Positions 1 to 28,632 of a stretch of 31,197 nt of DNA are shown here, piece after piece. Both the position numbers and the translations under genes were made by a program. Numbering within the stretch: position 1 is the stretch's first letter; each line of letters begins with the position of its first letter. Source of the stretch: a virus. Its lineage: Duplodnaviria; Heunggongvirae; Uroviricota; Caudoviricetes. Location: IMG/VR virus record IMGVR_UViG_3300028833_000002; one strand, given 5' to 3'. The notes under the pieces were generated by a model. The model saw only the letters and a list, made by a program, of their open reading frames with translations, had not been told where the DNA came from and made no database searches.

Positions 1-18
1 AGTGTCATAATAATAACT

Positions 19-50
19 TCCTTCCGGTTTTAACGTCTTGAACCTGACAT
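19..50 (-). promoter_or_regulatory. Conserved structured 5' leader (copy 1 of 7) ahead of a gene that starts at position 8 and runs off the window
   Basis: Sense sequence ATGTC-AGGTTCAA-GACGT-TAAAACCGGAAGGA. Homologous copies lie at ~1022, 1785, 2629, 3446, 4278 and 4923, each just upstream of a start codon. Confidence 0.75.
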
Positions 51-112
51 TGATAATTTAAATTCTTACTCGGTGAATTTTCGTTTCCTGTTTCCCTTCA
101 CCTTATGTATAT

Positions 113-141
113 ATTATAGCATAGATTTATGTGATTGTCAA
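113..141 (-). promoter_or_regulatory. Sigma-A/sigma-70 consensus early promoter, representative of those ahead of almost every left-arm unit (e.g. 1069-1097, 15501-15529)
   Basis: TTGACA-17 bp-TATAAT with an extended TG and an upstream A/T tract. Confidence 0.9.
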
Positions 142-246
142 GTGTTTTAGAAAAATTTTTTAAAAAGTTTTATATGGAAGAAATGGAAGATTTTGGAAAG
201 TCGCCCGGGCGAAACGCCATAATTTACCAATTATGGTATGTGAAAA

Positions 247-268
247 TGCCGCCCATTTCTGAGCGGCA
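247..268 (-). terminator. Intrinsic terminator hairpin; the same hairpin is reused at ~1956, 3671 and 5082
   Basis: TGCCGC-CCATTTCTGA-GCGGCA followed by a T-rich run on the minus strand, directly downstream of a stop codon. Confidence 0.75.
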
Positions 269-273
269 CGATT

Positions 274-813
274 TTACTGATTCATATACTTTTTGTAAAG
301 GTCAAAGATAATAAGGTGTACGTTGTTTCTATTTACCTTATCGGGGTCGATGTGCTTACAACTTACAGATTTACCAGTTACGGTATTTATAAGCATTATT
401 GTAACGCCATCCCAAATTTTGTAATTGGCTGTCATAATGTAATTACTACGGCAGAATTCTCCACTTAATTCCAGTGTTGCGCCTGCGCCATATCTGCCAC
501 CACTTCCTTCTTGAATAATGTCATTTAAGTGAGAACAAACTTTATTAAACATAACTTCAACTTTATGATGTTCCATGGTACGATAAACCAGTTCCATAAA
601 TTTCTTCTTGTACCAAAAATCGGTTCTTACTGGCTTAGGACGTGGGACATTTACCAACTGGTCAGCGGGAAAACCTACAAAAACACCGGTATCTTGATTA
701 CAACCGACATAACTTTCTATACCTTTATAAGTTGTTTTTCCTATAAAAAGGTAATCACAAGCGCCCTGATGGAATGAATCTCCATTGTTTAATTCTGATA
801 TGTATTTAGTCAT
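274..813 (-). CDS. Hypothetical early protein, 179 aa; shares modules with the 1237 and 3699 proteins
   Basis: ORF with GGAGGG SD, coupled to the upstream ORF. N-terminal ISELNNGDSF resembles LSELKPHDIF in the 1237 protein. Confidence 0.8.
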   Translation of the reverse strand: MTKYISELNNGDSFHQGACDYLFIGKTTYKGIESYVGCNQDTGVFVGFPADQLVNVPRPKPVRTDFWYKKKFMELVYRTMEHHKVEVMFNKVCSHLNDIIQEGSGGRYGAGATLELSGEFCRSNYIMTANYKIWDGVTIMLINTVTGKSVSCKHIDPDKVNRNNVHLIIFDLYKKYMNQ

Positions 814-1013
814 TATTTAACCCTCCTTAATGTCATTCCATCAACAGAAATAGAGTTGATAAAACCTCTTGAAAAGCGTTTTAATGAACAGTAGGTTAAC
901 CATCTCTGCTCTTTGCTCATTAAAGAGTCAAACATTCTGATAGCTACATACTCATGAGGTGAACTATAACTACTTTTTGTCTTGTCTGCGAAAGTAATTT
1001 CATATTTTTCCAT
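813..1013 (-). CDS. Hypothetical protein, 66 aa
   Basis: ATG follows the conserved leader and SD (GGAAAGGA); own promoter at 1069-1097. Confidence 0.75.
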   Translation of the reverse strand: MEKYEITFADKTKSSYSSPHEYVAIRMFDSLMSKEQRWLTYCSLKRFSRGFINSISVDGMTLRRVK

Positions 1014-1236
1014 ATTGGTTATCCTTTCCGGTTTTATGGACTTTTGACCTGTCCTTTTCTATGTTCTTATTATACCATAGTTTAAGACGTTTGTCAATAG
1101 ATTTTTAAAAATATTTTTCGCGGCGAAATATGGTAAGATTGGTAATTTATGGAAAAACGCCCGGGCGATTTGGTAAAATTTTCCAGTTTTGGTATAAGCG
1201 AAAAGCCGCCCTCTTTCGAGAGCGACTTTAAACCTA

Positions 1237-1776
1237 TTATTCCCAAACAGTACAATCGCCTTCAAGGAATGAATAGAATTTCTTGCCTGTATCTTTGCTG
1301 TCATAACCTATATACTTTCCATCGCTTGTTGTGCCAACAAATTCATACTTGCGATCGGTATATAACCTGAAAATATCGTGCGGTTTAAGTTCACTTAATC
1401 TCTTCTTTACTGGAAACTTAGGGCGTTCCACATTATTGTACTTTGCCCAACATACGCCAAAACCAACCTTTGCACTCATGAAATCATTTAGACTGCAATA
1501 AGTGGTAACAAACTTATTACTACGAATATTAATGATACTTGTCTTACGAGTCTTTTTGTCATAAATGAAGCAAAAGTTGCCAAGACTTATATTATCCATT
1601 TGTGCATAATTGGCGCCAGTTTCCAAATCTTCAAGTAAATCAGTAATAAATTCAGCATTACAGCTATTACCGCTTGCGTCGTCTACCTTGAAATCTTCCT
1701 GTACCCTGGAATTCTTTGCCAGTGCGTTTACAAGTGAGTCAAACTGTGAGAGTGCCCAAATAGTAAAATTTTTCAT
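1237..1776 (-). CDS. Hypothetical early protein, 179 aa (paralogue family A)
   Basis: Own promoter, leader, SD and terminator. Motif C-x2-ND-x5-G-x3-CWAKY. Confidence 0.85.
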   Translation of the reverse strand: MKNFTIWALSQFDSLVNALAKNSRVQEDFKVDDASGNSCNAEFITDLLEDLETGANYAQMDNISLGNFCFIYDKKTRKTSIINIRSNKFVTTYCSLNDFMSAKVGFGVCWAKYNNVERPKFPVKKRLSELKPHDIFRLYTDRKYEFVGTTSDGKYIGYDSKDTGKKFYSFLEGDCTVWE

Positions 1777-1985
1777 AGTAAATATCCTTCCGGTTTTTAG
1801 GACTTGAACCTGTCCTTTGTTGTTTTATCTTATGTATATATTATAGCACGAAATCGCGGCAATGTCAATACCTTTTAAAAAAATTTTTATGGTATTTAAT
1901 GGAAAAACGCCCGGGCAGATTGGTAAAAATTACCATCTCAATGGTAAATGGAAAAGCCGCCCATTTCTGAGCGACTTTAGATTTA

Positions 1986-2135
1986 TTACTTTGTAAATCC
2001 CATATCAATTTTTGCCTGTTTTCTTGCCTTCGCACGTTCATTAAGGGCGGTGAGGTAGGCAATCGCCTCCTCCCTTGTTAAAAGATAATGCTTACCCTTT
2101 TTGACAACCGTCATTCCTTTTTTTATCTCTGCCAT
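1986..2135 (-). CDS. Small basic protein, 49 aa (MAEIKKGMTVVKKGKHYLLTREEAIAYLTALNERAKARKQAKIDMGFTK); not in the ORF track
   Basis: ATG 2 nt after the stop of 2138..2620, AGGGAG SD, TAA just before the terminator. Confidence 0.7.
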   Translation of the reverse strand: MAEIKKGMTVVKKGKHYLLTREEAIAYLTALNERAKARKQAKIDMGFTK

Positions 2136-2137
2136 GA

Positions 2138-2620
2138 TTACATCTCCCTTGTAAATACTACTCTATAATTGAAGTATGCTACCTTAAAAACACCATTTTC
2201 AACCAGTTTATCCATTACAGTCCTAAACATGTCGGGGTCGAAACCTATACGATGTGTGTATCTTACATGGGACGCTAAGCTATTCATAAGACTTGACAAG
2301 ATGTACATGCTACCGACTTCTGTATTTTCGATAAGGGCGTTCATGTAAACTTCGTACTTTGTCTTACGATAGTTATTTCTTGCCACACGAGTTTTAGCTC
2401 TCTTAACAGCTCTAACTGCGCTGACAATATCTTCCACAGCGTCTTCGACATTATTGATGTCGTCGATGTCCATCTGTGCCATAGCTTCTGTAGCTTTTTT
2501 TACCTTTACCAGTTCCTGGCAAACGTCTGCCTTCATAGCTTCGTCATTGAGTTCTACTGAAGCTCTATAAGCATAAGGTGAAAAGCGTTCTACTTCTTTA
2601 GGGTTTGAATTTCTAAACAT
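2138..2620 (-). CDS. Hypothetical protein with N-terminal helices and a possible C-terminal winged helix (family B)
   Basis: Own promoter and leader. C-terminal F-x4-DKLVENG pattern shared with 2951..3436. Confidence 0.8.
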   Translation of the reverse strand: MFRNSNPKEVERFSPYAYRASVELNDEAMKADVCQELVKVKKATEAMAQMDIDDINNVEDAVEDIVSAVRAVKRAKTRVARNNYRKTKYEVYMNALIENTEVGSMYILSSLMNSLASHVRYTHRIGFDPDMFRTVMDKLVENGVFKVAYFNYRVVFTREM

Positions 2621-2950
2621 GGTAAATATCCTTTCCGGTTTTAACGTCTTATTACCTGACGATAGTAATTAATTTTCTTAGGGTTTAGGTCGTTTCCCTT
2701 ACCCTGTAATTATATTATATCATATCGGCGGGTATTTGTCAACACTTTTTCTAAAAAAATTTAAAAATATTTTTATGGTAAATATGGAAAATGTTGGTAA
2801 AACGCCCGGGCAAACTGGAAAATTTTTCTATTTATGGATAAAAAAGAATGGACGGTAAAAACCGTCCAAACTTTTAAGAAACAACCATAGGAGGTATGGA
2901 AATATTGGGATGGGACTTTTTGGTGGGAAATCCCTCAGAAACCCATGAGA

Positions 2951-3436
2951 TTAAAAATCTTCAATTAATGAGTAAATCATACCATATTCAGCGCTATACT
3001 GTGTCATAATTTTTCCGGCATTTACAAGTCTATCAATGCACACTTCAAAAACGTGAGTATGTCGGAGAGCTTTGCTGTCAAAATTATGGTCTTTTTTACT
3101 ATAGTCCATACTAAATTCAAGAAAATCAAGTAAATTCCCCTTAGAATACCACTTTCCAGCCTCCATATTTCCAGCAAGCATAGATTCGTATTCACCTAAA
3201 TAGGTTTCATTTCTCTTTACTGCCTTCGCCTTCTTAGCTGAACAGCTGATGTCATAACAGAGCTTAGCCAGTGTGTCAAAATCTTCCTCATTGATAGCGT
3301 TCAGCTCAGTCATAGCTTCCTTGATATTTTTGTTAATATCTGCCATTGACTTCTTTGTCTTTAAAAAGACTTCTGAATGTTTACGAAGTGCAGAGATTTC
3401 AAGTGCCTTTAATGTGATGTTTGATGTTCTTTTCAT
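2951..3436 (-). CDS. Hypothetical protein, paralogue of 2138..2620 (family B)
   Basis: Own promoter and leader. Shares MxRxSN, AKx(1-2)VxRN, NxExGxxY and F-x4-DRLVNAG. Confidence 0.8.
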   Translation of the reverse strand: MKRTSNITLKALEISALRKHSEVFLKTKKSMADINKNIKEAMTELNAINEEDFDTLAKLCYDISCSAKKAKAVKRNETYLGEYESMLAGNMEAGKWYSKGNLLDFLEFSMDYSKKDHNFDSKALRHTHVFEVCIDRLVNAGKIMTQYSAEYGMIYSLIEDF

Positions 3437-3698
3437 GGTAATAGTCCTTCCGGTTTTTAAGTCTTTTAACCTGACTTTAGATTGTTTTAAGGGGGTTTTC
3501 TTTATCCCTCACCTTATGTATATATTATAGCATAGAATAAGACAGTTGTCAATACTTTTTTTGAAAAATTTTTAAAAATATTTTTCGCGGCGAAATGTGG
3601 TAGAACTACCAATTTCTGGTAAAACGCCCGGGCGATTTGGTAAAATTTTCCATTAATGGCATAAAAGAACTGCCGCCCATTTCTGAGCGGCAGAACTG

Positions 3699-4268
3699 TT
3701 AAAGATTTGTATGGTCTACTACGTCTATTAAAGCGAATCTATGTTTCATTACCACATTTGCGGTGCTATGGTAGAACGACTTTTTTGTTCCATTCCATGA
3801 CATTAATGTAACGGCTACATCTCTACTATCTCCTATATTTGGTACTATTGACAACACTATGAAGTTATCGTTCTTGCCAAGATTAACCACATCGCCTACC
3901 TTTAAATTACATACCTTAATTGTAGTTCTAATCATTGGTATTTCTTTTCCCGTATATCGTGCCCAAGCGAGAGCAAGTCCGAGTTTATAATCCCTAATGT
4001 CGTTAAGATTATTAAGACGTGCTTCTCCTCTTCTGCGGGTTCTCGTATTGTAAATTATTGTATCACCGTTTTCTTTTACTGTGATGATAAAATTGCCATA
4101 AACAACAGATGTTCCCAACTTCCATTCAATACCACGAATCGCGCCACGTGCTTTCCCGTCAGAATCTTTACGGTATTTTGATGTCATTGAGCTCATAAAG
4201 TTGTCAAGACTTGTTATCTTGTCATCAACCCACTGGTCAAACTGTCTTTTGTTGTTACAAATTATCAT
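3699..4268 (-). CDS. Hypothetical protein, 189 aa (family A); start revised to ATG 4268
   Basis: ATG 4268 follows the leader and SD. The longer ORF-track start runs through the promoter and repeat. Motif NDIRDYKLGLALAWARY. Confidence 0.8.
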   Translation of the reverse strand: MIICNNKRQFDQWVDDKITSLDNFMSSMTSKYRKDSDGKARGAIRGIEWKLGTSVVYGNFIITVKENGDTIIYNTRTRRRGEARLNNLNDIRDYKLGLALAWARYTGKEIPMIRTTIKVCNLKVGDVVNLGKNDNFIVLSIVPNIGDSRDVAVTLMSWNGTKKSFYHSTANVVMKHRFALIDVVDHTNL

Positions 4269-4460
4269 AGTTAAATTCCTTTCCGGTTTTAGGGACTTGA
4301 ACCTGTCCTTTACTGTAATTATATTATACCACACTTTGCGGCACTTGTCAACACTTTTTAAAAAATTTTTATTGGTATTTTCTGGAAAAACGCCCGGGCA
4401 AATTTCCAAAATCTACCAATTATGGAATATAAGAAAACCACCCCGAAGGGTGGCAATTTC

Positions 4461-4913
4461 TTACATTACTGGATTAACATAAACGGTATGCTTAATGTGG
4501 TAAGTTCTTCCTTTTTCATCTGTGGCAACGATAAAACCGTCATCATCAAGATATTCAGTCGTGTATACCCTGTTTTCATAGATAAATTTTTCAGCCGGCA
4601 TAAGGAAACCTGCTCTAAACCATACTTTGTTAAAAGCCTTCGGCGTGTACTGCACGCCCATGGCTCTCAGTGCAACCAGTATGTAGCCAATGTTCATGTC
4701 ATAAATGTCATTGCTGTTGCACTTAGCTGTGAATACTTTTACATCACCGTTTTTGCTTGTGCGAATCAGCACGCTTGTCACAGCTTCCTCCGTCACGTCA
4801 CAGTTATCATCGAAGCTAAAGGAAAGATTTGGATGCTTTTCCTTGTAGGCGCCAAAATCTGCGAATACTGTCTTTACGAGTTTGTTCATGTCTGAGTAGT
4901 TGTAATTTTTCAT
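4461..4913 (-). CDS. Hypothetical protein, 150 aa (family A-related)
   Basis: Own promoter and leader. Motif AKCNSNDIYDMNIG. Confidence 0.8.
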   Translation of the reverse strand: MKNYNYSDMNKLVKTVFADFGAYKEKHPNLSFSFDDNCDVTEEAVTSVLIRTSKNGDVKVFTAKCNSNDIYDMNIGYILVALRAMGVQYTPKAFNKVWFRAGFLMPAEKFIYENRVYTTEYLDDDGFIVATDEKGRTYHIKHTVYVNPVM

Positions 4914-5124
4914 AGTTATTATTCCTTCCGGTTTTAGGGACTTGAACCTGTCCTTTTCTATACTCTTATTATATCATATCCCGCCGCAAATGTCAACACC
5001 TTTTTGAAAAAAATTTTTTGGTATTTTTTGGAAAAACGCCCGGGCACTTTTCCACAATTTTCCAGTATTACCACAAAAGGAAACCGCCCATTTCTGAGCG
5101 GTTCCCATGGAGGTATATATGGTA

Positions 5125-5487
5125 TTAAGATAATTTCTTTGTTAAGCGGTTTTTAAATTCGATTACATTGAGTTCTTCCTTTAAATCCCATTCTACACTC
5201 TCACATATTCTGCGAAGTTTAATCCATACGCAACCAGCAGTGAGTTCTAAAATGTGGTCATCATCCTCAAATCTTTCCATAGCTTCAATGATAGGTTCAT
5301 AGTTTTTGCGGAACAGGTCTGCGTAATATTCCGGTGAGCCGTCCGGTTCTTCCATGTAATCATCAGCAAGATTGTCAATGACATCCCAAGCTCTCGTGAC
5401 ATCATCGGGTGTATGGCTATTGTCATCATTGATAACTGCTTTAAAAGCATTGATTAAGTCGTAAGTATGTTTAATTCTTAAATCCAT
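5125..5487 (-). CDS. Acidic hypothetical protein, 120 aa
   Basis: GAAAGGA SD before ATG 5487; promoter at ~5535-5562; terminator at 5082-5103. Confidence 0.8.
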   Translation of the reverse strand: MDLRIKHTYDLINAFKAVINDDNSHTPDDVTRAWDVIDNLADDYMEEPDGSPEYYADLFRKNYEPIIEAMERFEDDDHILELTAGCVWIKLRRICESVEWDLKEELNVIEFKNRLTKKLS

Positions 5488-6673: not shown

Positions 6674-6839
6674 ATTAACTCCCCTTTTCTATATTCTTAT
6701 TATACTACATTTTAAAGAGAATGTCAATAGTTTTTCTAAAAATTTTTTATGGTATTTTATGGAAAAACGCCCGGGCAAATTGGTAAAATATGGTAATTAT
6801 GGAGTAAACAAAAGAGCGGCAATAAATGCCGCCCATGGA

Positions 6840-7169
6840 TTATTCTTCCGCTGCCAAAAATTTCTCCCAGTAGTTTACTATTCTTTTATATTCTTCTGTA
6901 TGGAGTTTTAGTGTCTGTATTTTTCCCTCCATGTAGCAATACCATTCATGAGAATCAACTTCCGGATTATCATAATGGTCAAAATCGGAATCGTAAATAT
7001 CTCCAAATCTTACAAAATCATTCCACTCATCTAAATCGCCAACAATTCGGAATATGCTATCATAGATTAAATGGAAAATAGTGTCAAGAGTCTGCCCTTT
7101 TAGTTCTACTCTTGATGTTTCAATTTCCTTAGTCTGATGATTAAACCATCCAGTTTCTATTATTACCAT
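6840..7169 (-). CDS. Acidic hypothetical protein, 109 aa
   Basis: GGAGGA SD; second gene of its unit. Confidence 0.8.
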   Translation of the reverse strand: MVIIETGWFNHQTKEIETSRVELKGQTLDTIFHLIYDSIFRIVGDLDEWNDFVRFGDIYDSDFDHYDNPEVDSHEWYCYMEGKIQTLKLHTEEYKRIVNYWEKFLAAEE

Positions 7170-7171
7170 AA

Positions 7172-7369
7172 TTATTCCTCCTTACCAAGAACTTCCTCTT
7201 CGTATTCAAGCTCATTACAATATTCATTGTAGCTGTATTCAAGGTTGTAGTTCCAGTCATAGTTGCCGTCTAACAGGTCATCCTTGTGAAGACAAAAGAG
7301 TCTTACACAGTCAGCTTCTGATAAATTTTCACCTAACATTGTTGCATATTCTTCTCTTGATGGTAACAT
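7172..7369 (-). CDS. Small, very acidic protein, 65 aa
   Basis: GGAGG SD precedes ATG 7369; consensus promoter at ~7425-7453. Confidence 0.75.
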   Translation of the reverse strand: MLPSREEYATMLGENLSEADCVRLFCLHKDDLLDGNYDWNYNLEYSYNEYCNELEYEEEVLGKEE

Positions 7370-7584
7370 ATAACATTCCTCCATTTTCTTTGTGGTATCG
7401 GTGTTTCCTTTACCTTATGTTTATATTATATCATATCCCGCCGTAAATGTCAAGTGTTTTTAAAAAATTTTTTAATTGGTAATTTATGGAAAAACGCCCG
7501 GGCAAATTTCCAATATTTACCATTTATACCACAAAAAGAGTGGCGACGTTTCCGCCGCCAAGTTCTACCATATTTGTATTTATC

Positions 7585-7875
7585 TTAGTCTTTTATCTCT
7601 GCAATGTTTGGCGTATTTTTCCGCTGTTCCATTAAAAATGCCGCACAAAGAACTAATTTCACGGCAAAGTGTATTGCCTCACGTGTATCTGTCATAATTT
7701 CTGACACATTGTTTTCAGTAATCTTGATTGTTACCTGATTCTCCTTTTCTTTCCAATCAAGAACTTCAATTGAGCTATGTGTAGCTTCTGAGATTGAGTT
7801 AAATTTTGTAATTGCGTCATAAATCTGCTGAGTGATTGGTCTTGTGAAGTTTGCGTTTACCATTTTACTTGTCAT
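7585..7875 (-). CDS. Hypothetical protein, 96 aa
   Basis: GGAGGT SD, own promoter and terminator. Confidence 0.8.
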   Translation of the reverse strand: MTSKMVNANFTRPITQQIYDAITKFNSISEATHSSIEVLDWKEKENQVTIKITENNVSEIMTDTREAIHFAVKLVLCAAFLMEQRKNTPNIAEIKD

Positions 7876-8155
7876 AATTATTACCTCCGTATCTTAGCGG
7901 GTATCGGCGTTTCCTTTACCCTATGTTTATATTATACCACAGTTTATGATGTTTGTCAACACTTTTTTAAAAAAATTTTTCGGCATTGGAAGAAATGGAA
8001 ATATATGGAAAAACGCCCGGGCAATTTGGTAGAAAATGGTGCACAGTTTCGCGGCGAAAGATTTGTGTATTTTGCGAATAGTATTTATTATGGAACTATG
8101 CTATAATATATATAGTGAAAGAAACAAATAAGCCGATAAGGCGGGAGGAATTAAT

Positions 8156-8320
8156 ATGACTGATTATGAAAAGTGCATGAAATACTGCGAAGAGGAAAGT
8201 ATTGGAACGGTAATAAATGGAGATAAAACTGTAGTAAGTGCCTATGTAATGGGAACTCCGGTTCTTGAATGGCATTTTTCCAAAGATGGAAAATTAATGG
8301 AAACTGTTAATTACAACTAA
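8156..8320 (+). CDS. Small protein, 54 aa (MTDYEKCMKYC...EWHFSKDGKLMETVNYN); not in the ORF track
   Basis: GGGAGG SD after a GCC-GATAA-GGC hairpin; TGCTATAAT upstream; paralogous to the next ORF. Confidence 0.75.
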   Translation: MTDYEKCMKYCEEESIGTVINGDKTVVSAYVMGTPVLEWHFSKDGKLMETVNYN

Positions 8321-8333
8321 GGAGGAAAATGGT

Positions 8334-8510
8334 ATGAGCGATAAAAACTTAATCACCGGACTTGCCAAAAAGTGGGGTAAGTTTTTTACCTCAGAATCAG
8401 ACGGTGAAAACGGAACTTTAGTTAGAATTCACGACACAAAATATAATGGCACAGAATTCCACTTCTCAGAAGACGGGGAACTTCTTGAATACTGGGCATT
8501 CAATATGTAA
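8334..8510 (+). CDS. Small protein, 58 aa (MSDKNLITG...EFHFSEDGELLEYWAFNM); not in the ORF track
   Basis: AGGAGG SD; terminator GCGACC..GGTCGC plus T tract at ~8517-8548. Confidence 0.75.
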   Translation: MSDKNLITGLAKKWGKFFTSESDGENGTLVRIHDTKYNGTEFHFSEDGELLEYWAFNM

Positions 8511-8675
8511 TATAATGCGACCTCAGAAATGGGGTCGCCCTTTTATTTGGTAGAACTGGAAAATTCTGGAAAATCGCCCGGGCAAATTTCTATAAATTAC
8601 CATTCATGGAATAAGAAAACACCGCCAAATTAATGGCGGCATCTCCCATGGAGGTATATGTCAAATTATTGGAAA

Positions 8676-9053
8676 TTACTTTAAGTTGCTTGCATAGATA
8701 AACATTTTACCAAGTATATCATTGCTACCTTTCTGATACCTATTGATAAGTTCTTTAACAGAAAGTAAACCAAAATCAGAATATACTAACTGTTCTGTTT
8801 TATATAAAGTGTTGCCTTCTTCATCTGAATATTCTGAAACTATCAAATCATCCATTGACATGGACAATTCTATATTTTTCAAATATTCTTCTAAGAAATC
8901 CCTGTTAAGAGTTGCTAAAGAAAAGAAGTTCTTTGTTTCACAAAGATATTCCACATGTGCCCATAACGCACTATCATCAATGTCATCAAAATGATGATAT
9001 GTGAATCCCTCTAAATCAAAATCGAATGTTTCAATGGTTAATAACATTTTCAT
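8676..9053 (-). CDS. Acidic hypothetical protein, 125 aa
   Basis: AGGAGG SD, promoter at ~9101-9129, terminator at 8621-8641. Confidence 0.8.
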   Translation of the reverse strand: MKMLLTIETFDFDLEGFTYHHFDDIDDSALWAHVEYLCETKNFFSLATLNRDFLEEYLKNIELSMSMDDLIVSEYSDEEGNTLYKTEQLVYSDFGLLSVKELINRYQKGSNDILGKMFIYASNLK

Positions 9054-9359
9054 AGTAATTCCTCCTGCCCTATGGGCGTTGTCATTTCTTCTATGATTAT
9101 ATTATACCACTTTCAAGGGGTTCTGTCAACAGTTTTCGCTGCAAAAAGTTGTGGCTCTTTTTTGTGTAAATTCACCAATAGACGTAGCTCCCATACAATG
9201 TCATAATTGGAAAATTTTCCCTCAAAATTCATTATACATATAATACCACAACTTTCACTATTTGTCAACACTTCCAGTTTTTGGAAAATCGCCCGGGCAA
9301 ATTACCATATTTTACCATTAATGGGACAAATAAAAAGGAGTGCCGAAGCACTCCCAGTT

Positions 9360-9674
9360 TCATATCTGTTCTGCTAAATCGTGGCAAACCAACATAGCTG
9401 CTAAATATTTGGCAGCATATGGGTGATTAGGAACTTTTGCCAGCTCGCCCGGTAAACGTCTGTTAACCCAGTCTACCACCTCAGCTCCAGCCCTGATGTC
9501 ATCATCGAGATAGTCGAGAACCTCATCAACAGCTTCATCGAGATAGTCGTTGTCAACCGTAAAACGATTGGCAAGATTTGGGATAGCTTTAAGGGCTTCG
9601 TGGTTCTCAGCTTCCCACGCCGCGAACGCATGCATAACTCTTGCTGTAAAAACATACCAAGACATATCTTTCAT
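9360..9674 (-). CDS. Hypothetical protein, 104 aa
   Basis: GGAGGT SD before ATG 9674; terminator GGAGTG..CACTCC. Confidence 0.8.
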   Translation of the reverse strand: MKDMSWYVFTARVMHAFAAWEAENHEALKAIPNLANRFTVDNDYLDEAVDEVLDYLDDDIRAGAEVVDWVNRRLPGELAKVPNHPYAAKYLAAMLVCHDLAEQI

Positions 9675-9923
9675 ACCAATTACCTCCATAGTTTAGTGGT
9701 TTCCTTTATTCTGTAATTATATTATACCATACCCTATTATAAAAGTCAATAGTTTTTTAATGAAATGTTATACAAATTCGCAGTGAAATTTTTGTATACT
9801 ATGCTATTGGTAATATATGGAAAATCGCCCGGGCAAATTTCCAAAATATGGAAATAATGGAGTAAAAGAAAAACTGGGTAAAAATACCCAGTCTTTCAAG
9901 AAACAAACACATGAGGTTGGAAA

Positions 9924-10196
9924 TTACTTTTCTTTTACAGTGATGGAAATGTCAACCAGTTCAAAATCAATTGGGTCTTCTCTGCCAAAATCCCATATTG
10001 CGCCATGGACTTCTTCTACATCAATTCCACATTTTTCTTCAAAATCAAACATGATTTTATCAGAAACTTTAAGACAAAGATGTTTGTCTTCCGGATGGAT
10101 GAAAGTAGTGCCCACTGGCATTAAATCCCACTGTTCAGTTGTCATAGGTCTTACTTCACGTTCAATTGTTATAGTTGTTAATTCCTTCTTAGTCAT
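9924..10196 (-). CDS. Hypothetical protein, 90 aa
   Basis: AGGAGGT SD; second gene of its unit. Confidence 0.8.
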   Translation of the reverse strand: MTKKELTTITIEREVRPMTTEQWDLMPVGTTFIHPEDKHLCLKVSDKIMFDFEEKCGIDVEEVHGAIWDFGREDPIDFELVDISITVKEK

Positions 10197-10215
10197 AGCT
10201 TATTACCTCCTAAAA

Positions 10216-10305
10216 TTATCCAAAAATTACGTTTACTACAGCTATAATAAGCGCTGTTAATCCTGCTGCCTGAGCAAAAGCCTTAATGTCAACAAAATTT
10301 TTCAT
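10216..10305 (-). CDS. Hydrophobic peptide, 29 aa (MKNFVDIKAFAQAAGLTALIIAVVNVIFG); not in the ORF track
   Basis: GGAGGT SD at normal spacing; first gene after a consensus promoter; stop just before the next SD. Confidence 0.7.
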   Translation of the reverse strand: MKNFVDIKAFAQAAGLTALIIAVVNVIFG

Positions 10306-10546
10306 ATTATTTACCTCCATATTCTATTAGGTTTTCCCTTACCCTGTAATTATATTATACCATACCCCTAAGAGAATGTCAACACCTTTTTAATAAAATA
10401 CTACACAAATTCGCAGCGAAATTTTTGTGCAATCTGCTATTTGGTAGAAACTGGAAAATCGCCCGGGCAAATTTCCATAATTTACCATTTTGCGCACGGG
10501 CAAATTACCAAACACCTCCATTTTACTGGAAGTGCTTGGCTTGAAA

Positions 10547-10849
10547 TTATTCCCAGTATTTACTTAATTTTTCTGAGTAAAGCTGACCCTTAAATATACC
10601 ATCATAGAAAAAACCTACCAGAGGTTCAAATATTTCCATTTCTTCCTCCGTTAATCCTGAGAAGTCGCCTGAGAGTGCTTTTTCTACGTCCTTTACAGCA
10701 CCTTCCCAGCACTCATCGAAGTCGTCCATGCTGAGCTTTGCCATTCTTTTCTTACAGATAGGACTCGCAAATTTGGCGCAAGTTGACTCAGTTACAAGGC
10801 TTTCAATTTCTTTGCTCATTCCGATAATTCTTTCTACTGCCATTGTCAT
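10547..10849 (-). CDS. Acidic hypothetical protein, 100 aa
   Basis: GGAGGT SD before ATG 10849; own promoter. Confidence 0.8.
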   Translation of the reverse strand: MTMAVERIIGMSKEIESLVTESTCAKFASPICKKRMAKLSMDDFDECWEGAVKDVEKALSGDFSGLTEEEMEIFEPLVGFFYDGIFKGQLYSEKLSKYWE

Positions 10850-11010
10850 AATAATTACCTCCATAGATATACCATTTGTTTCCTAAAGGGTTTTGTTTCC
10901 CTTACCTTATGTTTATATTATATCATAGTTTAGTATGAATGTCAACACTTTTTTAAAAATTTTTTATTGTCATATTGCACAAATTTCGCCGCGAAAATTC
11001 TATCAACACC

Positions 11011-11080
11011 ATGGCAACTTGGAAATAATTGGAAAATCGCCCGGGATGGCAACTTGGAAATAATTGGAAAATCGCCCGGG
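11011..11080 (+). repeat. Exact 35-bp tandem duplication ending in the boundary-repeat core
   Basis: ATGGCAACTTGGAAATAATTGGAAAATCGCCCGGG twice (11011-11045 and 11046-11080). Confidence 0.95.
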
Positions 11081-11169
11081 CAAATTACCATAAAATGGAA
11101 ATTAAGGAATAAACGAAAAACCGCCCAAAATTTGGACGGTCTTTCAAATTTATGGAGGTGTTGGAAATA

Positions 11170-11385
11170 TCATGCACGGTGGTAGACATTGTAAATTGTA
11201 TCAAGAATGTCCGCCATTTCCCTTTTATTTACAGGTGGAGAAAGCCTGTCAATGCCGCCAAATTCTCCCTTTTTTACAAGAGAAACGGCACCGTTTGCGT
11301 ATTCCAGCTGATAGTAGTCTCTGCCAGTTTTTGCCTTTAAGTTTTCAAGTTTGATGTTGAGTAAAGTTTTAGTAATAATTCCCAT
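11170..11385 (-). CDS. Hypothetical protein, 71 aa
   Basis: GAGGT SD, promoter, terminator. Confidence 0.75.
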   Translation of the reverse strand: MGIITKTLLNIKLENLKAKTGRDYYQLEYANGAVSLVKKGEFGGIDRLSPPVNKREMADILDTIYNVYHRA

Positions 11386-11642
11386 AATAATATACCTCTT
11401 TCCATTATTACCCTTTCGGGTTGTTTCTTTGTTTCTATGATTATATTATATCATATTGGCGGGAACTTGTCAACACTTTTTTTGAAAAAATTTTATTGTG
11501 ATATTATACAAAATCGCGGCGAAATTTTTGTATGGTTTGTTATTGGAAGAAACTGGAAAATCGCCCGGGCAATTTTCCATAAAATGGTAATCCTACCACA
11601 AATAGAATGGAAGCCTTGTTTTACCAAGACTTCCAAATTTAC

Positions 11643-11849
11643 TCAATAAGCCCATTCTCTGTCATTGGAATATAATTCCCATCTTGGGTCTTCCTTTAAT
11701 TTCCTTGTAGTTATGGTATAATCTTCCTCACTCTTAATTTTTCCCATTTCTTTGTAATAATCTACCATTTTAGGAACATCTTCCTCATAATAACATCTTA
11801 TTGGAAACATTTCACCTTTTATCCTTATTTCCCAAACCTTTGCCATCAT
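11643..11849 (-). CDS. Hypothetical protein, 68 aa
   Basis: GAAAGGA SD after a GCC-GATA-GGC hairpin; promoter; terminator at 11609-11634. Confidence 0.75.
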   Translation of the reverse strand: MMAKVWEIRIKGEMFPIRCYYEEDVPKMVDYYKEMGKIKSEEDYTITTRKLKEDPRWELYSNDREWAY

Positions 11850-12101
11850 AATTACCAATCCTTTCCGCCTATCGGCTTTCCTGTTTGTTTCTATGATTAT
11901 ATTATACCATAGATTTATTAGAATGTCAATACATTTTCAGAAAAAATTTATTGTGATATTGCACAAATTTCGCCGCGAAAATTCTACTGGTAAATTATGG
12001 AAAATCGCCCGGGCAAATTTCCAAAAAATGGTAATTAAGGAGTAAACAGAAAGGAAGCCTTGTTTTACCAAGACTTCCAATCTTTGTTATTTTAGGAGAA
12101 A

Positions 12102-12515
12102 TTAGATATAATTCCAGTTTTCTGCCATTTTCTTAAATTCTTCCATTTCTTCCTTGATAAAAGTATTAAAGTTGTCAATATTTGCTATTGCCTTGAATTT
12201 GGAATTAAATACTATTGCTTCCTCATTACCCCAATCACAATGTGGGTCATCCATAAACTTCCAACCGTTTTCTTCCAAAACCTCTTTAAAGTGGGCAATA
12301 TCTACCAAATAACATTCAAAAGCATATATGTCAGCTCTGTTATAATCTGGCATAAAATCCACATTTGTGTCCTTTACAGCTTCTACCATGGCAAGGATTT
12401 CCTCAGCTGGTGTATCACGGGTAATAGTGAATTCCCTGATAATACCATATTTTTCATAGGTTCTGCCGTCTTCTTCATCCACAAAATCTGTCCAGTCAAA
12501 AAGTCTAAATTTCAT
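12102..12515 (-). CDS. Acidic hypothetical protein, 137 aa
   Basis: GGAGGT SD before ATG 12515; terminator at 12053-12078 identical to the one at 11609-11634. Confidence 0.8.
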   Translation of the reverse strand: MKFRLFDWTDFVDEEDGRTYEKYGIIREFTITRDTPAEEILAMVEAVKDTNVDFMPDYNRADIYAFECYLVDIAHFKEVLEENGWKFMDDPHCDWGNEEAIVFNSKFKAIANIDNFNTFIKEEMEEFKKMAENWNYI

Positions 12516-13036
12516 ACAAATTACCTCCATAATTATACCAATTGTTTCCTTTGGGGTTCTTTCGTTCCCCTTACCTTATGTTATTATTATATCATAGAAT
12601 AGGGTATTTGTCAATAGTTTTTCTAAAAAATTTTTGTTGTGATATTACACAAACTAAGGGTAGACTTTTTATGCAACATTTTTCTCCTACTTTCCCATTC
12701 TATACCAGCTCTCATTTTTACTTTTTTACCATATTTTTCCGGTGGAATTTACCATGGAGATTTATAACATAAATAACAATAATTGGAAACTCCTCACTTA
12801 TGGTATAATTGGTAAATTATGGAAAATCGCCCGGGCAAATTTCCACATATTACCAATACATATAATAAACATATTCTACCATAATTTTCTATAAAAGTAA
12901 ATACTTAAACTCCAACTACCAAAAAATGTTTTCACACAACTTTCACATAACTATCACAATTCTATCACATAAATCCATTATAATAATAACAATGAAAGAA
13001 GCAAACACTACGGGCAATTTGGAAAGGAATGGTATT

Positions 13037-13498
13037 ATGAACATCTACAAAGAAATGGAAAAAGAAAACTATCTCAACAGATACAAAAAGTTAGTTTTCA
13101 CTGAAAATCAAATCTATGGTTTCCCTTATGAGTCAAATATCTACATCTACATCACAAAGAATGAATACTTTGACTTCTATCTTAACAAAAGCACTAAGAA
13201 TGACTCAAAAACTCTTGACTGGCGACCGACTAAGAAGTCAATCGAAAGAATGTTAGAAAAAGCGACAATTCTTTGCACAGTAGAAGAATTTGAACAGAAT
13301 TACTGCTACGATAACAACGGAAGAACATTAGAAAAAATGTTATTCACAAAGTTATTAAATCAGACTTATACACCGGACACAGTAAGATTTGATAAAGGCG
13401 CAGACATTACAATTAACAATGTTCCTTATAGTGTAAAATATCTAAGGGGCAGACTCAGTGATATGAAAACTATCGAAACCGCAGAAAATGAAAAATAA
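13037..13498 (+). CDS. Putative PD-(D/E)xK restriction-endonuclease-like protein, paralogue of 14927..15448
   Basis: GGAAAGGA SD before ATG 13037. Motif LCTVEEFE..DNNGRTLE..GAD..YSVK. The fold call is inference. Confidence 0.6.
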   Translation: MNIYKEMEKENYLNRYKKLVFTENQIYGFPYESNIYIYITKNEYFDFYLNKSTKNDSKTLDWRPTKKSIERMLEKATILCTVEEFEQNYCYDNNGRTLEKMLFTKLLNQTYTPDTVRFDKGADITINNVPYSVKYLRGRLSDMKTIETAENEK

Positions 13499-13594
13499 TT
13501 TAACATTAAGCCGCCAAGTAATTGGCGGTTCCTTTTTGCCGTGAAGATTGGAATATATTGGGAAATCGCGGCGAAAAATTAAGAAATGAATCTC

Positions 13595-13623
13595 TTTACT
13601 TTTTTGTAAAAACATGGTATAAT
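13595..13623 (+). promoter_or_regulatory. Plus-strand promoter with no downstream SD-led ORF
   Basis: TTTACT-17 bp-TATAAT with an extended TG. Confidence 0.6.
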
Positions 13624-13947
13624 AGTTTTAGAAAGTTAAGAATACCAATAAATTAGGGTTCTTACCAAATCTCACAAATTTGGAAAAAGTTTCCGGGTGG
13701 AAGCCAGCTCCCATAAACTTCCATTTTTGGTAAATTTTTCCAAAAAGTGCAGCTCCCATTTTCTTCCATTTATGGAAAAATTTCCCTCAAACGTAGCTCC
13801 CATAATCTTCCATATATGGAAGAATCTTCCCATCCTAGCTCTCCTAGAATCTGGTAAAACTGGTAAAATCTGGAGGAATTTACAGGGATATATCTCCAGC
13901 ATAGGAAAAATGTGGAAAATTGCCCGGACAATTTTCCAATATATACC

Positions 13948-14196
13948 GAACTTCTAAGCGGTTCAGGTGAACCGATTTCACCGCTTTAAAGCGCTAAAGC
14001 GCCGGCACGGGCAATTATCCAAATTATGGACTTTACCACGGTAAAGCGCAACACTTTAAAGCGCTAAAGCGGCACGGGCAATTTTCCATATTATGGACTT
14101 TACCGCGGTAAAGCGCAACACTTTAAAGCGCTAAAGCGGCACGGGCAATTTTCCATATTCTGCATGAACTTTTAAGCGGTTCATGTGAACCGATTT
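13948..14196. repeat. ~67-bp tandem repeat (about 2.6 copies, 13984-14159) bracketed by 31-bp direct repeats containing a CGGTTCA-NN-TGAACCG palindrome
   Basis: Units contain CTTTAAAGCGCTAAAGCG, GCACGGGCAATT and the palindrome CTTTACC(A/G)CGGTAAAG. Flanks at 13948-13978 and 14166-14196. Confidence 0.9.
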
Positions 14197-14254
14197 TATT
14201 GAAAAGTGAACCGCCTTGATAATCGACGGAACTTTTCAAGGCGGTTTTATTAAA

Positions 14255-14533
14255 TTACTCAATAATGTATTTGTCACTTTTTGTTTGTTCTGTAAAGCGG
14301 TTTACTCTTGTTTGTATGTAGTCTTTTGAGATAGTCCCAAAGTTTTTTATTGTTGCGATTTCAAGAGTGATAATATTTTTATCGTCAAGTGTTTTTCTAT
14401 ACTCATAAATTTTATCATCGGCTTGTTTTCTGCTACCGTCGCACATTTTAATTAAAACAATGTTTTTTGCTTTATCCTTGATAATGCAAAAGCCGATAAA
14501 AGCACCTTTAAAATTAAAATCCTTAATACTCAT
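14255..14533 (-). CDS. Hypothetical protein, 92 aa
   Basis: GAGGT SD; last gene of a three-gene unit. Confidence 0.75.
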   Translation of the reverse strand: MSIKDFNFKGAFIGFCIIKDKAKNIVLIKMCDGSRKQADDKIYEYRKTLDDKNIITLEIATIKNFGTISKDYIQTRVNRFTEQTKSDKYIIE

Positions 14534-14613
14534 AATTATTATACCTCATTTCTAAATTTTCGGCACTTGTGAGGATTTTTCAACCCTCACAAAATACCAT
14601 TCTGATTTACTGA

Positions 14614-14850
14614 TTAATAAGTTTCATATATTGCTGTACACTGTCTATAAGCACTATCTTTACTAATAACGATATTTGAGTCAATTGTTTCATAACCTCT
14701 ATCCAAAGCACTCATGACATACCAAAACGCCTCCGGCATTGACTCACCTGTTTTATACTTGTATGTTTTGTTTGTGCCTAAAATCCTGTATTCTGTATAA
14801 CTGTTTTCGCTGTTTGTCATGTCTGTAAAGTAATTAGCTAAAATTTTCAT
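14614..14850 (-). CDS. Hypothetical protein, 78 aa
   Basis: GGAGGT SD before ATG 14850. Confidence 0.75.
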   Translation of the reverse strand: MKILANYFTDMTNSENSYTEYRILGTNKTYKYKTGESMPEAFWYVMSALDRGYETIDSNIVISKDSAYRQCTAIYETY

Positions 14851-14926
14851 AATTATTACCTCCGTAAATGTTAACTTGTTTTTTATTGTGTGGTTAGTGC
14901 TCTGACCACTAACCACATCATTCTAA

Positions 14927-15448
14927 TTACATACAATATTCATTGTATAACGCTGTTGCTTTTTCGCTATCAATCTTTATTGTGCTGTTATCAGTGAATT
15001 TTATCTGATATACTCCAAAATCACCGTTTTCTTTGTGGTTTTCGTTTGATTTCTTGTATTCAACTCCAAAGAACTCAAAGATAACCCTTTCGGCAGTATA
15101 GCCGTTATTATCTTTATACTCTGCTTTTTTAGCTTCAAATTCAGCCGCTGAACACAGCTGAATGTCATGGGATAAATCCCATTTTTTAATATCCTTCTTA
15201 CCACATCTGATACGAAGCGCTGGCATGCCGTCGGAGCTAAAACCGCTATAAACTGCGATAGCTTCCTTAGTCCAATCAAGCTCATGAGCCCACATTTTGC
15301 CAGCGTTTTCGTAAACCATGATAAAATCACGGCTGAAAATCTCATCAAGGTAAGCGTCAAGGTATGCCTTGATGTAATCAGTGTGAACGTTTGTCTTCTC
15401 TGAGTTTCTGAACTTGAAACCTGTTGATGTTTTAAAAATTAAATCCAT
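14927..15448 (-). CDS. Putative PD-(D/E)xK restriction-endonuclease-like protein
   Basis: GGGAGGT SD, promoter at 15501-15529. Motif LCSAAEFE..DNNGYTAE..GD..YQIK (E..D..QxK). The fold call is inference. Confidence 0.6.
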   Translation of the reverse strand: MDLIFKTSTGFKFRNSEKTNVHTDYIKAYLDAYLDEIFSRDFIMVYENAGKMWAHELDWTKEAIAVYSGFSSDGMPALRIRCGKKDIKKWDLSHDIQLCSAAEFEAKKAEYKDNNGYTAERVIFEFFGVEYKKSNENHKENGDFGVYQIKFTDNSTIKIDSEKATALYNEYCM

Positions 15449-15701
15449 AAAATTACCTCCCGCCTTTCGGCTGTCTGTGTTTGTTTCTTTCTATGGTTCT
15501 ATTATAGCACGGTTAAAAATGAATGTCAACAGTTTTTTGAAAAAAATTAAGGTTTTTCAAAAAAAATTTTTTCACTTAGCACGGGCATTATAAAATGACT
15601 AATATTGCGACAAAACGGGCGTGAGTATGGTTTTGGTATGAAATGATGACGGGGGGTGCCAAAATTTTGGAAAATGGGAAAATCTCTGACAGCTGCGGTG
15701 C

Positions 15702-15899: not shown

Positions 15900-16964
15900 A
15901 TGTACAACCTAAACACAAACCTATCCGAGCGAATCGCTCTCGTAAACTCAAATCCCCCAACCACACCGGCCCAAGCGGAACAAGCAGCAAACTATCTTCT
16001 CTATGGAAAAGACTCAACTGGCTTATCCGCTGTAGACCGCAAACTAGTCTATCTCAAACCAAAACACGATTACTCAAAAAACGCCCCATTATCCCTAGAC
16101 GAACTAACCGATTCTCCTACATTTATAGAAACACCATCTACATTTTCGCGCACAAAATACCGCACACCAAAACCATCGTTTAGCCGCGAAGACCAAACAA
16201 ACGCCAATCTACCAAATATCGGAGATTTGTGGCACTCAATAGATGAGGTTTAGAAAGTTCTCGAAAAAACCGACCCAACTTCCAAAAAATACTATGAGTT
16301 TAAGCATTTGCTTGTTGAGCTTCGGAAAGACCAATATCTCTTACGCGACCAAGTTAAATCCCCAATCACCAAAAAACCAGACCACGCTTCAGCTTGGGAG
16401 CCGCAAACCTCTTCTCTCGACACCTGGCCTTTAAGTAGTTCTATTCCCGGTGTTTTGGAAAATCCATTCCATAATGGTGTAAAGGTGGACATACCTCTCG
16501 ACCCGCCGCGAAACACCATTGACCTAACAAACTGGAAGCATATTGCGCAAATAGGATTTGGGTATTGGGAGTTAAAGGATGAGAATAAGCCCCTAATTGC
16601 CCAATTTGACAGATATGTGGAAATGGCCGATTTTAGCGAACAACAAACCATTATATGGGATGGGAAGTTAGCCGGCAAATCGAATTTGGAAATTTTAGCG
16701 GATTTGGAAGCCCATGGCTACTCCCACGCCCCAAACTACATTAGTACGATTTGGACCACATGTTGTAAGAAAGTTGCGGCTTAGGCAGACCTGGTTTACG
16801 ATGAATGGTGTTGTAAGGATTGGGACAAGGCTTGGAAGAGATGTAGTTGTTGTGGGGAATGGAAGATGAGGGATAAGAGATTATGGCACAAGAAAAAGAA
16901 GAACGTTGATGGATGGGCAAATGTTTGTAAGGATTGTGTTGAGGAGAAGAAAAAGAACAAGTAA
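15900..16964 (+). CDS. 354-aa protein with a C-terminal CxxC..CxxC zinc ribbon (TAG=Gln, 2 in-frame TAG); possible late regulator
   Basis: AGGAGG SD. ORF-track fragments 15900 and 16308 share a frame and read through to TAA 16964. KRCSCCGEWK...CKDC. Confidence 0.75.
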
Positions 16965-17068
16965 GACGACCCCTGCTGGCTTCGCCAGCAGGCCCACCCA
17001 GGGTTTAAAAAATTTCGCCGCGAAAGTAGTGTCTAAAATCGCGGCAAGACAGTAAAGGAGTGATTTAA

Positions 17069-17332
17069 ATGGAAAAGGAATTAATGGAACTGATGGTTAA
17101 TGGCTTTCATATGTCAGATATTATCGGTCTTGCGAAATACGTGGGTATAGAGTAGGATGAGTTAAGAGATTTGGTTGGTAAGGTTTTCGCACAAGAAGAG
17201 AACGGAATTTAGAACTTGGTTGTGGAAACTGTAATGAGATTTTCTTTGATGAATAGGTTTCAGAAGAGAAAGGTTATGAAAATGTGCCGCGATATTGTGA
17301 GCGCAAATAAGGAAGCGGATTAGAATGGCTAA
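17069..17332 (+). CDS. Hypothetical protein, 87 aa (3 in-frame TAG)
   Basis: AAGGAG SD; the frame is open apart from TAG and ends at a TAA overlapping the next ATG. Confidence 0.7.
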
Positions 17333-18248: not shown

Positions 18249-18251
18249 GCC

Positions 18252-20409: not shown

Positions 20410-20414
20410 TAGGG

Positions 20415-24060: not shown

Positions 24061-24079
24061 TAAGGAGAGGTGATAATTA

Positions 24080-25252: not shown

Positions 25253-25279
25253 TCTTAAAAATCGAATACATAGTAAAGA

Positions 25280-25314
25280 AAAGGTGAGTGAGAGAATTCT
25301 CACCACCTTTCTTT
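25280..25314 (+). terminator. Intrinsic terminator after the major capsid gene
   Basis: AAAGGTG(A)GTGAGA-GAAT-TCTCACCACCTTT followed by a T-rich tail. Confidence 0.75.
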
Positions 25315-25348
25315 ATATATTTAAAGGAGTTAAAAGGAGGAATTTAAT

Positions 25349-25900: not shown

Positions 25901-25913
25901 TGAGGTGAGATAA

Positions 25914-27371: not shown

Positions 27372-27376
27372 TTAAC

Positions 27377-28613: not shown

Positions 28614-28632
28614 CTAAGGAGGTTGAAGTTAA

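Follow-up and report, generated by a model that had tools for sequence, protein, structure and literature searches.

What is the short RNA element that directly precedes the Shine-Dalgarno (SD) sequence of one early gene after another in a large phage, and what might it do for the genes behind it? The stretch of DNA in question (the window, 31,197 nucleotides analyzed at full length) corresponds to G000:C1:705-31901 of a 180,579-bp virus record, IMGVR_UViG_3300028833_000002, 36.9% GC, and from position 1 to about 15,500 every one of its genes lies on the minus strand. The original prediction for this locus described seven copies of a compact stem-loop adjoining the SD, and these are found where it placed them, all on the minus strand and with the stems, loops, and tails that it listed (Table 1). 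Window 1-5400 contains exactly seven instances of the decamer AAAACCGGAA, always on the minus strand (22, 1026, 1788, 2633, 3448, 4281, and 4926). When one mismatch is tolerated, the whole window has 13 matches where 3.5 would be expected, a number that none of 100 shuffles reached. Read on the sense strand, each copy consists of a 4-5-bp stem (P1) enclosing a loop A-GGT-N4-5, the second stem strand, 1-2 nt, AAAACC, GGAA(A)GGA, and ATG, with the start codon 7-10 nt past GGAA(A)GGA and 15-19 nt past ACC. Pairing of loop GGT with tail ACC (P2) would create a pseudoknot of ∼32 nt, in which P2 ends right at the SD GGAA(A)GGA, a sequence that we take to be able to pair over 7-8 nt with the very 3' terminus of 16S rRNA (...CCUCCUUUCU-3'). 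A reading of GGTTCAAGTCC as a tRNA or T-arm was discarded because no tRNA was found and the likeness is confined to the GGAC copies.

The same cassette, with many copies of the motif, is present in viral contigs of 77.5 and 47.9 kb and in five contigs from metagenomes, the related phage contigs carrying about 10 or more copies apiece. An alignment of 33 distinct copies from this phage and two relatives (alignment A6) bears out the covariation first noted in the stems of the seven copies, with 90.8% of cells paired, a covariation score of 0.407 versus 0.096 for shuffles (0/500), and no more than 0.061 in slid registers. Each P1 pair takes two to four pair types (AU/GC/CG/UG, GC/AU, AU/UA, CG/GC), and orthologous leaders in the relatives differ by double changes in P1, for example GGAC/GTCC versus GAAC/GTTC and AGTC/GACT versus AGAG/CTCT. 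P2 is 100% paired, with one position being GC in 31 rows and CG in 2. The leader at genome 130-167 (numbering of the 180,579-bp record) combines the loop ACGU with the tail AAAACGG, an in-register G:C to C:G swap in P2 that is kept in at least three related phages with differing P1 stems. The loop AGGT and tail ACC had been described as invariant, which is not truly the case, as ACGT/ACGG and AGGAAA variants are found in the same genome.

The fold is also found in a very different setting, ahead of prophage scaffold genes. With tight pattern scans, which replaced a loose scan of viral contigs that gave mostly chance singletons among the matches listed, ∼30 contigs were found to contain a single copy of the form CGAGG-CAGGTGAA-CCTCG-GTAAAAACCGGAAGGAG-N5-8-ATG, in nearly all of them upstream of the gene for a PF06810 scaffold protein of ∼207 amino acids; a handful of further singletons without stem or start codon appear chance-like, and one pair lies ahead of an open reading frame (ORF) of 86 amino acids. 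We fetched scaffold genes from species-representative genomes to examine their leaders and found the motif in prophages of Selenomonas, Schwartzia, Megasphaera, Veillonella, Dialister, Acidaminococcaceae, and some Clostridia. In an alignment of 27 scaffold leaders (A5), 97.2% of cells are paired, and the covariation score of 0.188 compares with 0.036 for shuffles (0/500) and no more than 0.005 for slid registers. P2 identities were read from two scans that fixed only P1 and the A-run, leaving loop and tail free, together with the genome loci. In this scaffold version, P2 swaps identity yet stays complementary, being GGU:ACC in most leaders and otherwise CGU:ACG, CAC:GUG, GAU:AUC, AGCC:GGCU, or ACA:UGU, with CGCUU:AAGCG and CGUU:AGCG (the latter including a U.G pair) as further pairings, and UUCGU:ACGGA versus UUCAC:GUGGA differ at two compensated positions with the same P1. 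The geometry remains steady, with the first loop (L1) of 0-3 nt, P2 of 3-5 bp, the second loop (L2) of 1-3 nt, and an A-rich third loop (L3) of 5-8 nt. In a crude class-level permutation, 9 of 14 P2 classes were complementary compared with 4.0 +/- 1.5 by chance (P = 0.002), the classes having been parsed by script since a model-guided alignment of the divergent variants (A7) had too many insert columns. A few leaders are without compensation (CACGAAA/ACGGG, ACGAAA/AGCGG, and ACUGAA/AACGU). Canonical scaffold leaders could also form a local hairpin, CGGU-AAAA-ACCG, that could compete for ACC; because neither the early-gene version nor the variants can form this hairpin, the pseudoknot pairing is the covarying one.

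The two versions have in common CAGGU, the A-run, ACCGGA, and 13-14 nt between the P2 strands. In a MAFFT alignment their P1 registers differ by ∼2 nt, for which reason two separate covariance models were built, and we treat them, on sequence resemblance, as two versions of one motif class and not as proven homologues. The proposal that loop GGT and tail ACC form an H-type pseudoknot ending at the SD is supported by the in-register compensation and by the many P2 identities of the scaffold version. The comparative data argue strongly for this structure in the scaffold version, and moderately in the early-gene version because variants with a 2-bp P2 exist there.

These variants are among several observations that weigh on the other side. 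The genome includes two copies whose loop is AGGAAA, and in a second phage lineage (L376/L385) four leaders combine a covarying P1 with an invariant loop AAGGAAAA; only GG:CC pairing is possible in either, so that the early-gene version either can do without P2 or has its AGG loop recognized by something else. Within the phage lineage, P2 compensation amounts to one evolutionary event, preserved in at least 4 phages. Nested folding energies are weak and not significant, and a P2 of 3 bp is marginal, typical of ligand-stabilized pseudoknots such as preQ1-I. The near-identical loop and tail of the jumbo-phage and prophage versions could, moreover, reflect a shared trans-acting factor and not the fold alone.

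How far does the element extend in this phage? A covariance model built from the motif copies (R2) and searched against the whole genome gave 16 copies scoring 44-58 bits and nothing else; each is on the minus strand, at genome 130-5659 or 172599-180039, which form one early-gene block. The first seven units, which the original prediction took to be co-regulated, are thus part of a larger set of 16 served by the motif. The minus strand has ∼27 consensus promoters, at genome 172,687-180,093 and 241-16,233, stretches that are the two ends of a record classed as having direct terminal repeats. In the window, a repeated terminator-promoter-leader cassette of ∼200 nt has the pseudoknot at its 3' end (alignment A1 of seven intergenic regions) and runs from the intrinsic terminator of the preceding unit through TGGWA/TWCCA boxes, an invariant GCCCGGGCG box, and an A/T-rich UP-like tract to the promoter and leader. 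The promoter is of the sigma-A-type consensus (TTGACA, a 17-nt spacer with TRTG, and TATAAT), and a promoter scan gave seven 12/12 matches with an extended -10, one for each unit (TTGACA-17-TGnTATAAT). The pseudoknots lie 14-70 nt downstream of the promoter; four of the seven units are short-leadered, with the pseudoknot 14-23 nt past the -10 hexamer, and the other three have an additional hairpin directly after the predicted +1, copy 1 being an example of a long leader with such a 5' hairpin upstream. In Pfam and PHROGs searches, none of the 17 tested proteins of the motif-led units had a Pfam match, and the sole PHROG match was weak and of unknown function. The remaining early leaders contain a plain GC hairpin with a GNRA-like loop (GAAA, GATA, or CATA), mostly 0-1 nt before a canonical GGAGGT SD.

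Table 1. Window coordinates of the predicted leader pseudoknots and of the promoters, terminators, and ORFs of the repeated cassettes
Feature	Position	Strand	Description
Predicted leader pseudoknot, copy 1	15..51	-	P1 (A)ATGTC/GACGT(T), loop AGGTTCAA, tail AAAACC, SD GGAAGGA; 56 bits
Predicted leader pseudoknot, copy 2	1019..1054	-	P1 GGAC/GTCC, loop AGGTCAAAA, tail ATAAAACC, SD GGAAAGGA
Predicted leader pseudoknot, copy 3	1781..1816	-	P1 AGGAC/GTCCT, loop AGGTTCAA, tail AAAAACC, SD GGAAGGA
Predicted leader pseudoknot, copy 4	2626..2661	-	P1 CGTC/GACG, loop AGGTAATAA, tail TTAAAACC, SD GGAAAGGA
Predicted leader pseudoknot, copy 5	3441..3477	-	P1 AAGTC/GACTT, loop AGGTTAAAA, tail AAAAACC, SD GGAAGGA
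Predicted leader pseudoknot, copy 6	4274..4308	-	P1 GGAC/GTCC, loop AGGTTCAA, tail CTAAAACC, SD GGAAAGGA; 57.9 bits
Predicted leader pseudoknot, copy 7	4919..4953	-	P1 GGAC/GTCC, loop AGGTTCAA, tail CTAAAACC, SD GGAAGGA
Promoter, unit 1	113..141	-	TTGACA-17-TG-n-TATAAT, 12/12
Promoter, unit 2	1069..1097	-	12/12, extended -10
Promoter, unit 3	1840..1868	-	12/12
Promoter, unit 4	2714..2742	-	12/12
Promoter, unit 5	3524..3552	-	12/12
Promoter, unit 6	4323..4351	-	12/12
Promoter, unit 7	4968..4996	-	12/12
Intrinsic terminator of preceding unit	5079..5106	-	5' boundary of cassette 7
Similar terminators	3670-3693, 2849-2868, 4437-4454	-	
ORFs under these leaders	274-813, 813-1013, 1237-1776, 1986-2135, 2138-2620, 2951-3436, 3699-4268, 4461-4913	-	

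Outside this phage group, the motif was found only with phage genes. Searches of five host genomes with the scaffold model gave a single strong match in each, the prophage leader, the next-ranked matches being coding AAAAACCGGAAA without a hairpin. In 151 sampled Negativicutes genomes, three had a strong match, each a scaffold leader, and the early-gene model had no match among the same 151. The idea of a host regulon was dropped, the five host and 151 Negativicutes genomes having yielded only prophage scaffold leaders, and the motif is phage-specific. A blastn search of the motif region against 50,697 phage records gave no match. At the gathering score, Rfam 15 gave no match on the window or on 12 scaffold loci, and at permissive thresholds no relevant match was obtained, with no PreQ1 at E<=10 (window 1-5400 and 101 nt around a scaffold leader); an already described family, allowed for when the motif was first noted, did not emerge from the covariance search. 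Full-text literature searches similarly returned no description of the motif, of a scaffold-gene leader pseudoknot, or of a phage preQ1-like variant.

What, then, might the element do? The reading that we prefer, although we would give it somewhat less than an even chance, is that each copy is a constitutive and portable ribosome-binding module for high expression, serving SD presentation and mRNA stabilization and not acting as a sensor. A compact H-type pseudoknot would form in the 5' leader of the early phage mRNA, with P1 as a 4-5-bp stem, loop GGU paired to tail ACC as P2, and an A-rich (N)UAAAA stretch positioned for the P1 minor groove. The cassette, with the pseudoknot as its last module, would drive 16 transcription units of early genes of unknown function, and the pseudoknot would act in cis and constitutively on translation initiation and on mRNA life. 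Its self-contained fold could keep the purine-rich SD from capture by the variable coding sequence, the end of the P2 helix could let the SD:anti-SD duplex stack coaxially, and a structured block near the 5' end could hinder 5'-end-dependent decay.

Several lines of evidence point in this direction. The 16 copies precede unrelated ORFans, and the prophage copies precede PF06810 scaffold genes, whose product is needed in high copy, which argues for a generic and not a gene-specific role; the early ORFans and the scaffold genes have no common metabolic or regulatory theme, which likewise points to a constitutive module. No SD-sequestering alternative hairpin is common to the early-gene copies compared, which also favors constitutive action. 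The other early leaders set a helix 0-1 nt from the SD, and many units have a 5'-terminal hairpin, suggesting selection for SD presentation and transcript protection. Across the P2 classes, there is little that is invariant beyond the helices, the A-rich L3, and the terminal A of L2, and so few invariant unpaired bases leave little sequence for a specific ligand pocket. The combination of 16 units, the scaffold genes of unrelated prophages, and the lack of host-chromosome copies speaks for a general module of translation or mRNA stability rather than for a regulon tied to particular genes or a metabolite.

Precedents for parts of such a module are known. The nearest functional analogy for a positive SD-adjacent pseudoknot would be the activator pseudoknots of repZ/repA in IncI-alpha and IncB plasmids, which are required for translation initiation (PMC8053102). 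There, too, the loop of a hairpin pairs with the RNA immediately 5' of the ribosome-binding site, but the plasmid pseudoknot is long-range, dependent on translation of a leader peptide, and antagonized by an antisense RNA, none of which was seen for the phage motif, and the sequences are unrelated. Among leader pseudoknots of phages, the closest is that of gene 32 in T4, T2, and RB69, which likewise controls translation from the mRNA leader (PMC3014915) and was considered in a 2010 review to be possibly the only viral pseudoknot in translational autoregulation (PMC3014915). It differs in being a single copy ∼67 nt upstream of the start that nucleates gp32 binding for autoregulation, whereas the present motif abuts the SD of many unrelated genes. 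The cassette as a whole recalls the PeSL elements of T4-type phages, reiterated terminator/early-promoter/stem-loop cassettes that flank ORFans in plastic early regions (PMC2839356, PMC4122927). The window cassettes are organized alike, in one orientation and with ∼27 consensus promoters on one strand separated by terminators and ORFans, a likeness of kind and not of sequence; in PeSL elements the stem-loop terminates the preceding unit and is not an SD leader pseudoknot, and hosts and sequences differ. The 5' mRNA stabilizers of Firmicutes (the cryIIIA STAB-SD, the polypurine stabilizer of SP82 early RNA, and 5' stem-loops) prolong mRNA life. They share with the motif a strong purine tract resembling an SD, a structure close to the 5' end, or both, but are simple hairpins or SD-like tracts with no conserved pseudoknot. 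Set beside these systems, the motif is an SD-adjacent leader pseudoknot without a described family.

Among the alternatives to a constitutive module, the one that survives best, although we consider it unlikely, is an operator for a trans-acting RNA-binding protein, be it CsrA-like, a T4 RegA-like early shut-off, or scaffold autoregulation in the prophages. Nearly all early-gene copies keep the loop A-GG unchanged, one element on sixteen mRNAs would suit coordinated shut-off, and the gene 32 pseudoknot of T4 is a precedent for a phage translational operator (PMC3014915). The AGGAAA and AAGGAAAA variants also look like CsrA hairpin sites placed ∼20 nt from a GGA-containing SD; the combination of one GGA in the loop with a second at the SD, as in CsrA sites, occurs in such variants, most copies having the loop AGGU. 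The ACGU copy is without GG, yet pairs through a compensating tail change that is kept in related phages, and the scaffold-type variants without any GG stay complementary. CsrA (PF02599) itself is absent from the phage and was not found in four of the five prophage-host genomes that carry the scaffold-type motif, and with the non-GG variants this led us to disfavor a CsrA operator. Autoregulation of the window copies by a scaffold protein was ruled out, since the phage lacks a PF06810 gene, and no phage protein is known to be common to the jumbo phage and the prophages.

Slightly less probable still is a ligand-responsive riboswitch with a preQ1-I-like fold, in which a host or phage metabolite or signal would stabilize P2 and gate translation of the early genes and the prophage scaffold genes. 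The preQ1-I aptamer is an H-type pseudoknot in which an A-rich 3' tail forms P2 next to the SD (PMC10639078), and it is the likeness to this fold that makes the idea attractive. Like preQ1-I (RF00522), the motif measures ∼32-34 nt, with a P1 of about 5 bp (4-5 bp in the early-gene copies), a short P2 of 3-4 bp as in ligand-stabilized pseudoknots, a multinucleotide L2, an A-rich L3, and the P2 3' strand at the edge of the SD. The CGGU-AAAA-ACCG hairpin of the canonical scaffold leaders would also provide a two-state system. In preQ1-I the C at the end of L2, which pairs with preQ1, is a defining base. The phage motif has a highly conserved A at this site, the base before the P1 3' strand being A in nearly all A5 and A6 copies; the strong conservation counts in favor of a riboswitch, the change of base against membership in the preQ1-I family. 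The P2 of the motif, GGU:ACC, is free to change identity. There is no covariance-model match, no Rfam riboswitch model was hit even at E<=10 on 101 nt, and no genes for queuosine synthesis or transport lie nearby, the downstream genes being ORFans or scaffold proteins without a common metabolic theme. Few unpaired bases are conserved across the P2 classes, the early-gene version has no conserved expression platform or SD-sequestering alternative, and in several scaffold leaders the SD lies 2-10 nt past P2. With its confinement to phages and 16 copies per genome as further differences, the motif is by its sequence features not a member of the preQ1-I family, and the resemblance remarked on in the original prediction, of size and topology with differing conserved bases, holds as one of topology. 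We assign a comparably low probability to a bolder proposal, that of a new class of minimal phage aptamer or ribosome-recruiting pseudoknot with a preQ1-I-like fold and other conserved bases, which would detect a signal from the host or attach to the 30S platform, and by which one large-phage lineage would gate 16 host-takeover genes together and temperate phages would set their scaffold output.

RNase Y can cut, and RNase J1 can be blocked in its 5'-3' progress, in Firmicutes mRNAs, and a determinant of processing or decay would accordingly act by RNase Y cleavage after the G in G|UAAAA or by a block to RNase J1, leaving a stable mRNA that starts near the SD. The element lies near the 5' end of early transcripts and internally in the late operons of prophages, just before the scaffold and capsid genes from which most product is needed, and a conserved G/U-AAAA single strand adjoins the structure. 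This A-rich loop would be buried if the pseudoknot forms, and the idea, which we regard as improbable, overlaps the constitutive module rather than excluding it. Least probable of all is a functionless plain hairpin in a recently duplicated cassette, which would owe its complementarity and conservation to that duplication or to gene conversion. In its favor, the whole ∼200-nt cassette is repeated and homogenized like the PeSL cassettes of T4-type phages (PMC2839356, PMC4122927), and the nested folds lack significance. Against it, copies with constant loop and tail have stems that differ by compensatory changes, orthologous leaders of relatives differ by P1 double changes, P2 identity shifts in step in many lineages, and the motif recurs in unrelated prophages without the cassette.

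Confirmation of the fold would make this a widespread and phage-specific RNA motif, as yet undescribed, with clear covariation in only ∼32 nt, used both in the reiterated early-gene cassettes of a 180-kb phage and at the scaffold gene of many Firmicutes prophages. Phages would then have, next to the gene 32 leader of T4, another type of leader pseudoknot acting in translation. The motif could serve as a small, portable expression part in Firmicutes and Negativicutes, and its natural compensatory variants would allow the effect of structure directly 5' of the SD on initiation and mRNA decay to be tested. Were a ligand or host factor bound, it would show how a phage times or tunes its host-takeover genes.

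Some further features of these regions deserve mention. The palindromic GCCCGGGCG(TTTT) box, invariant and flanked by TGGWA/TWCCA, lies 60-80 nt upstream of each -35 hexamer, one per cassette (window ∼195-215, 1155-1175, and 1905-1925, for example); 23 boxes are in minus-strand and 8 in plus-strand orientation, all inside the early block, and the box probably acts at the level of DNA. Another element conserved in the leaders, ATAAGGTGARGGGAAAC...CCC, forms a 5'-terminal hairpin right after the predicted +1 at window 60-105, 2670-2705, and 3490-3520 (minus strand) and in several later units; units 1, 4, and 5, with their long leaders, have it, as do units that lack the pseudoknot. In the 3' untranslated region of gene 2951-3436 (window 2878-2950, minus strand), a hairpin CCATACCTCCTATGG whose loop shows an anti-SD-like ACCUCC precedes the terminator at 2849-2868. 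The other early units of the window (6700-15530, minus strand) have the same consensus promoter, starting at 6727, 7453, 7959, 9129, 10382, 10945, 11473, 11929, 12614, and 15529, and different leaders, so that two leader classes serve one promoter class; several of these units have a short GC hairpin 0-1 nt before a GGAGGT or AGGAGG SD. On the plus strand, window 15900-31197 contains large ORFs without a Pfam match (table 11).

Despite the direct-terminal-repeat class of the record, the sequences of 20-1000 bases at its two ends are not identical. A gene beginning MTLRAFYSEVAAN... occurs twice near the record start, at genome 2-124 and 398-712 (L235), the first copy running into the record end and window 1-8 being the start of the second; the two copies differ in their leaders, one being ACGT/ACGG and the other canonical. 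The second phage lineage, as seen at 580-4760 of L376 (Ga0247611_10005471), has 11 consensus promoters in 14 kb, and its four leaders with loop AAGGAAAA and tail AAACC(G/A)GAAAGGA resemble CsrA sites. The pair of motif-like leaders ahead of the 86-amino acid ORF (L094 3565-3602 and L130) has loop CAGGTACA, tail ACAAAACCGGAAGGAGG, and a weak stem of 3-4 bp; the ORF has no Pfam match, looks by eye like a helix-turn-helix protein of the XRE type, and may represent a third gene context. Finally, another type of leader is conserved ahead of the PF06810 genes of other Clostridia and Paenibacillaceae prophages (L186, L187, L188, L195, L196, L205, L207, L208, and L227, positions ∼340-400). In it a hairpin of greater length, GCGCGCAGGAnnTCCTGGGCGT, precedes TATTTTATTGC and the SD, and it may be a second scaffold-leader motif.

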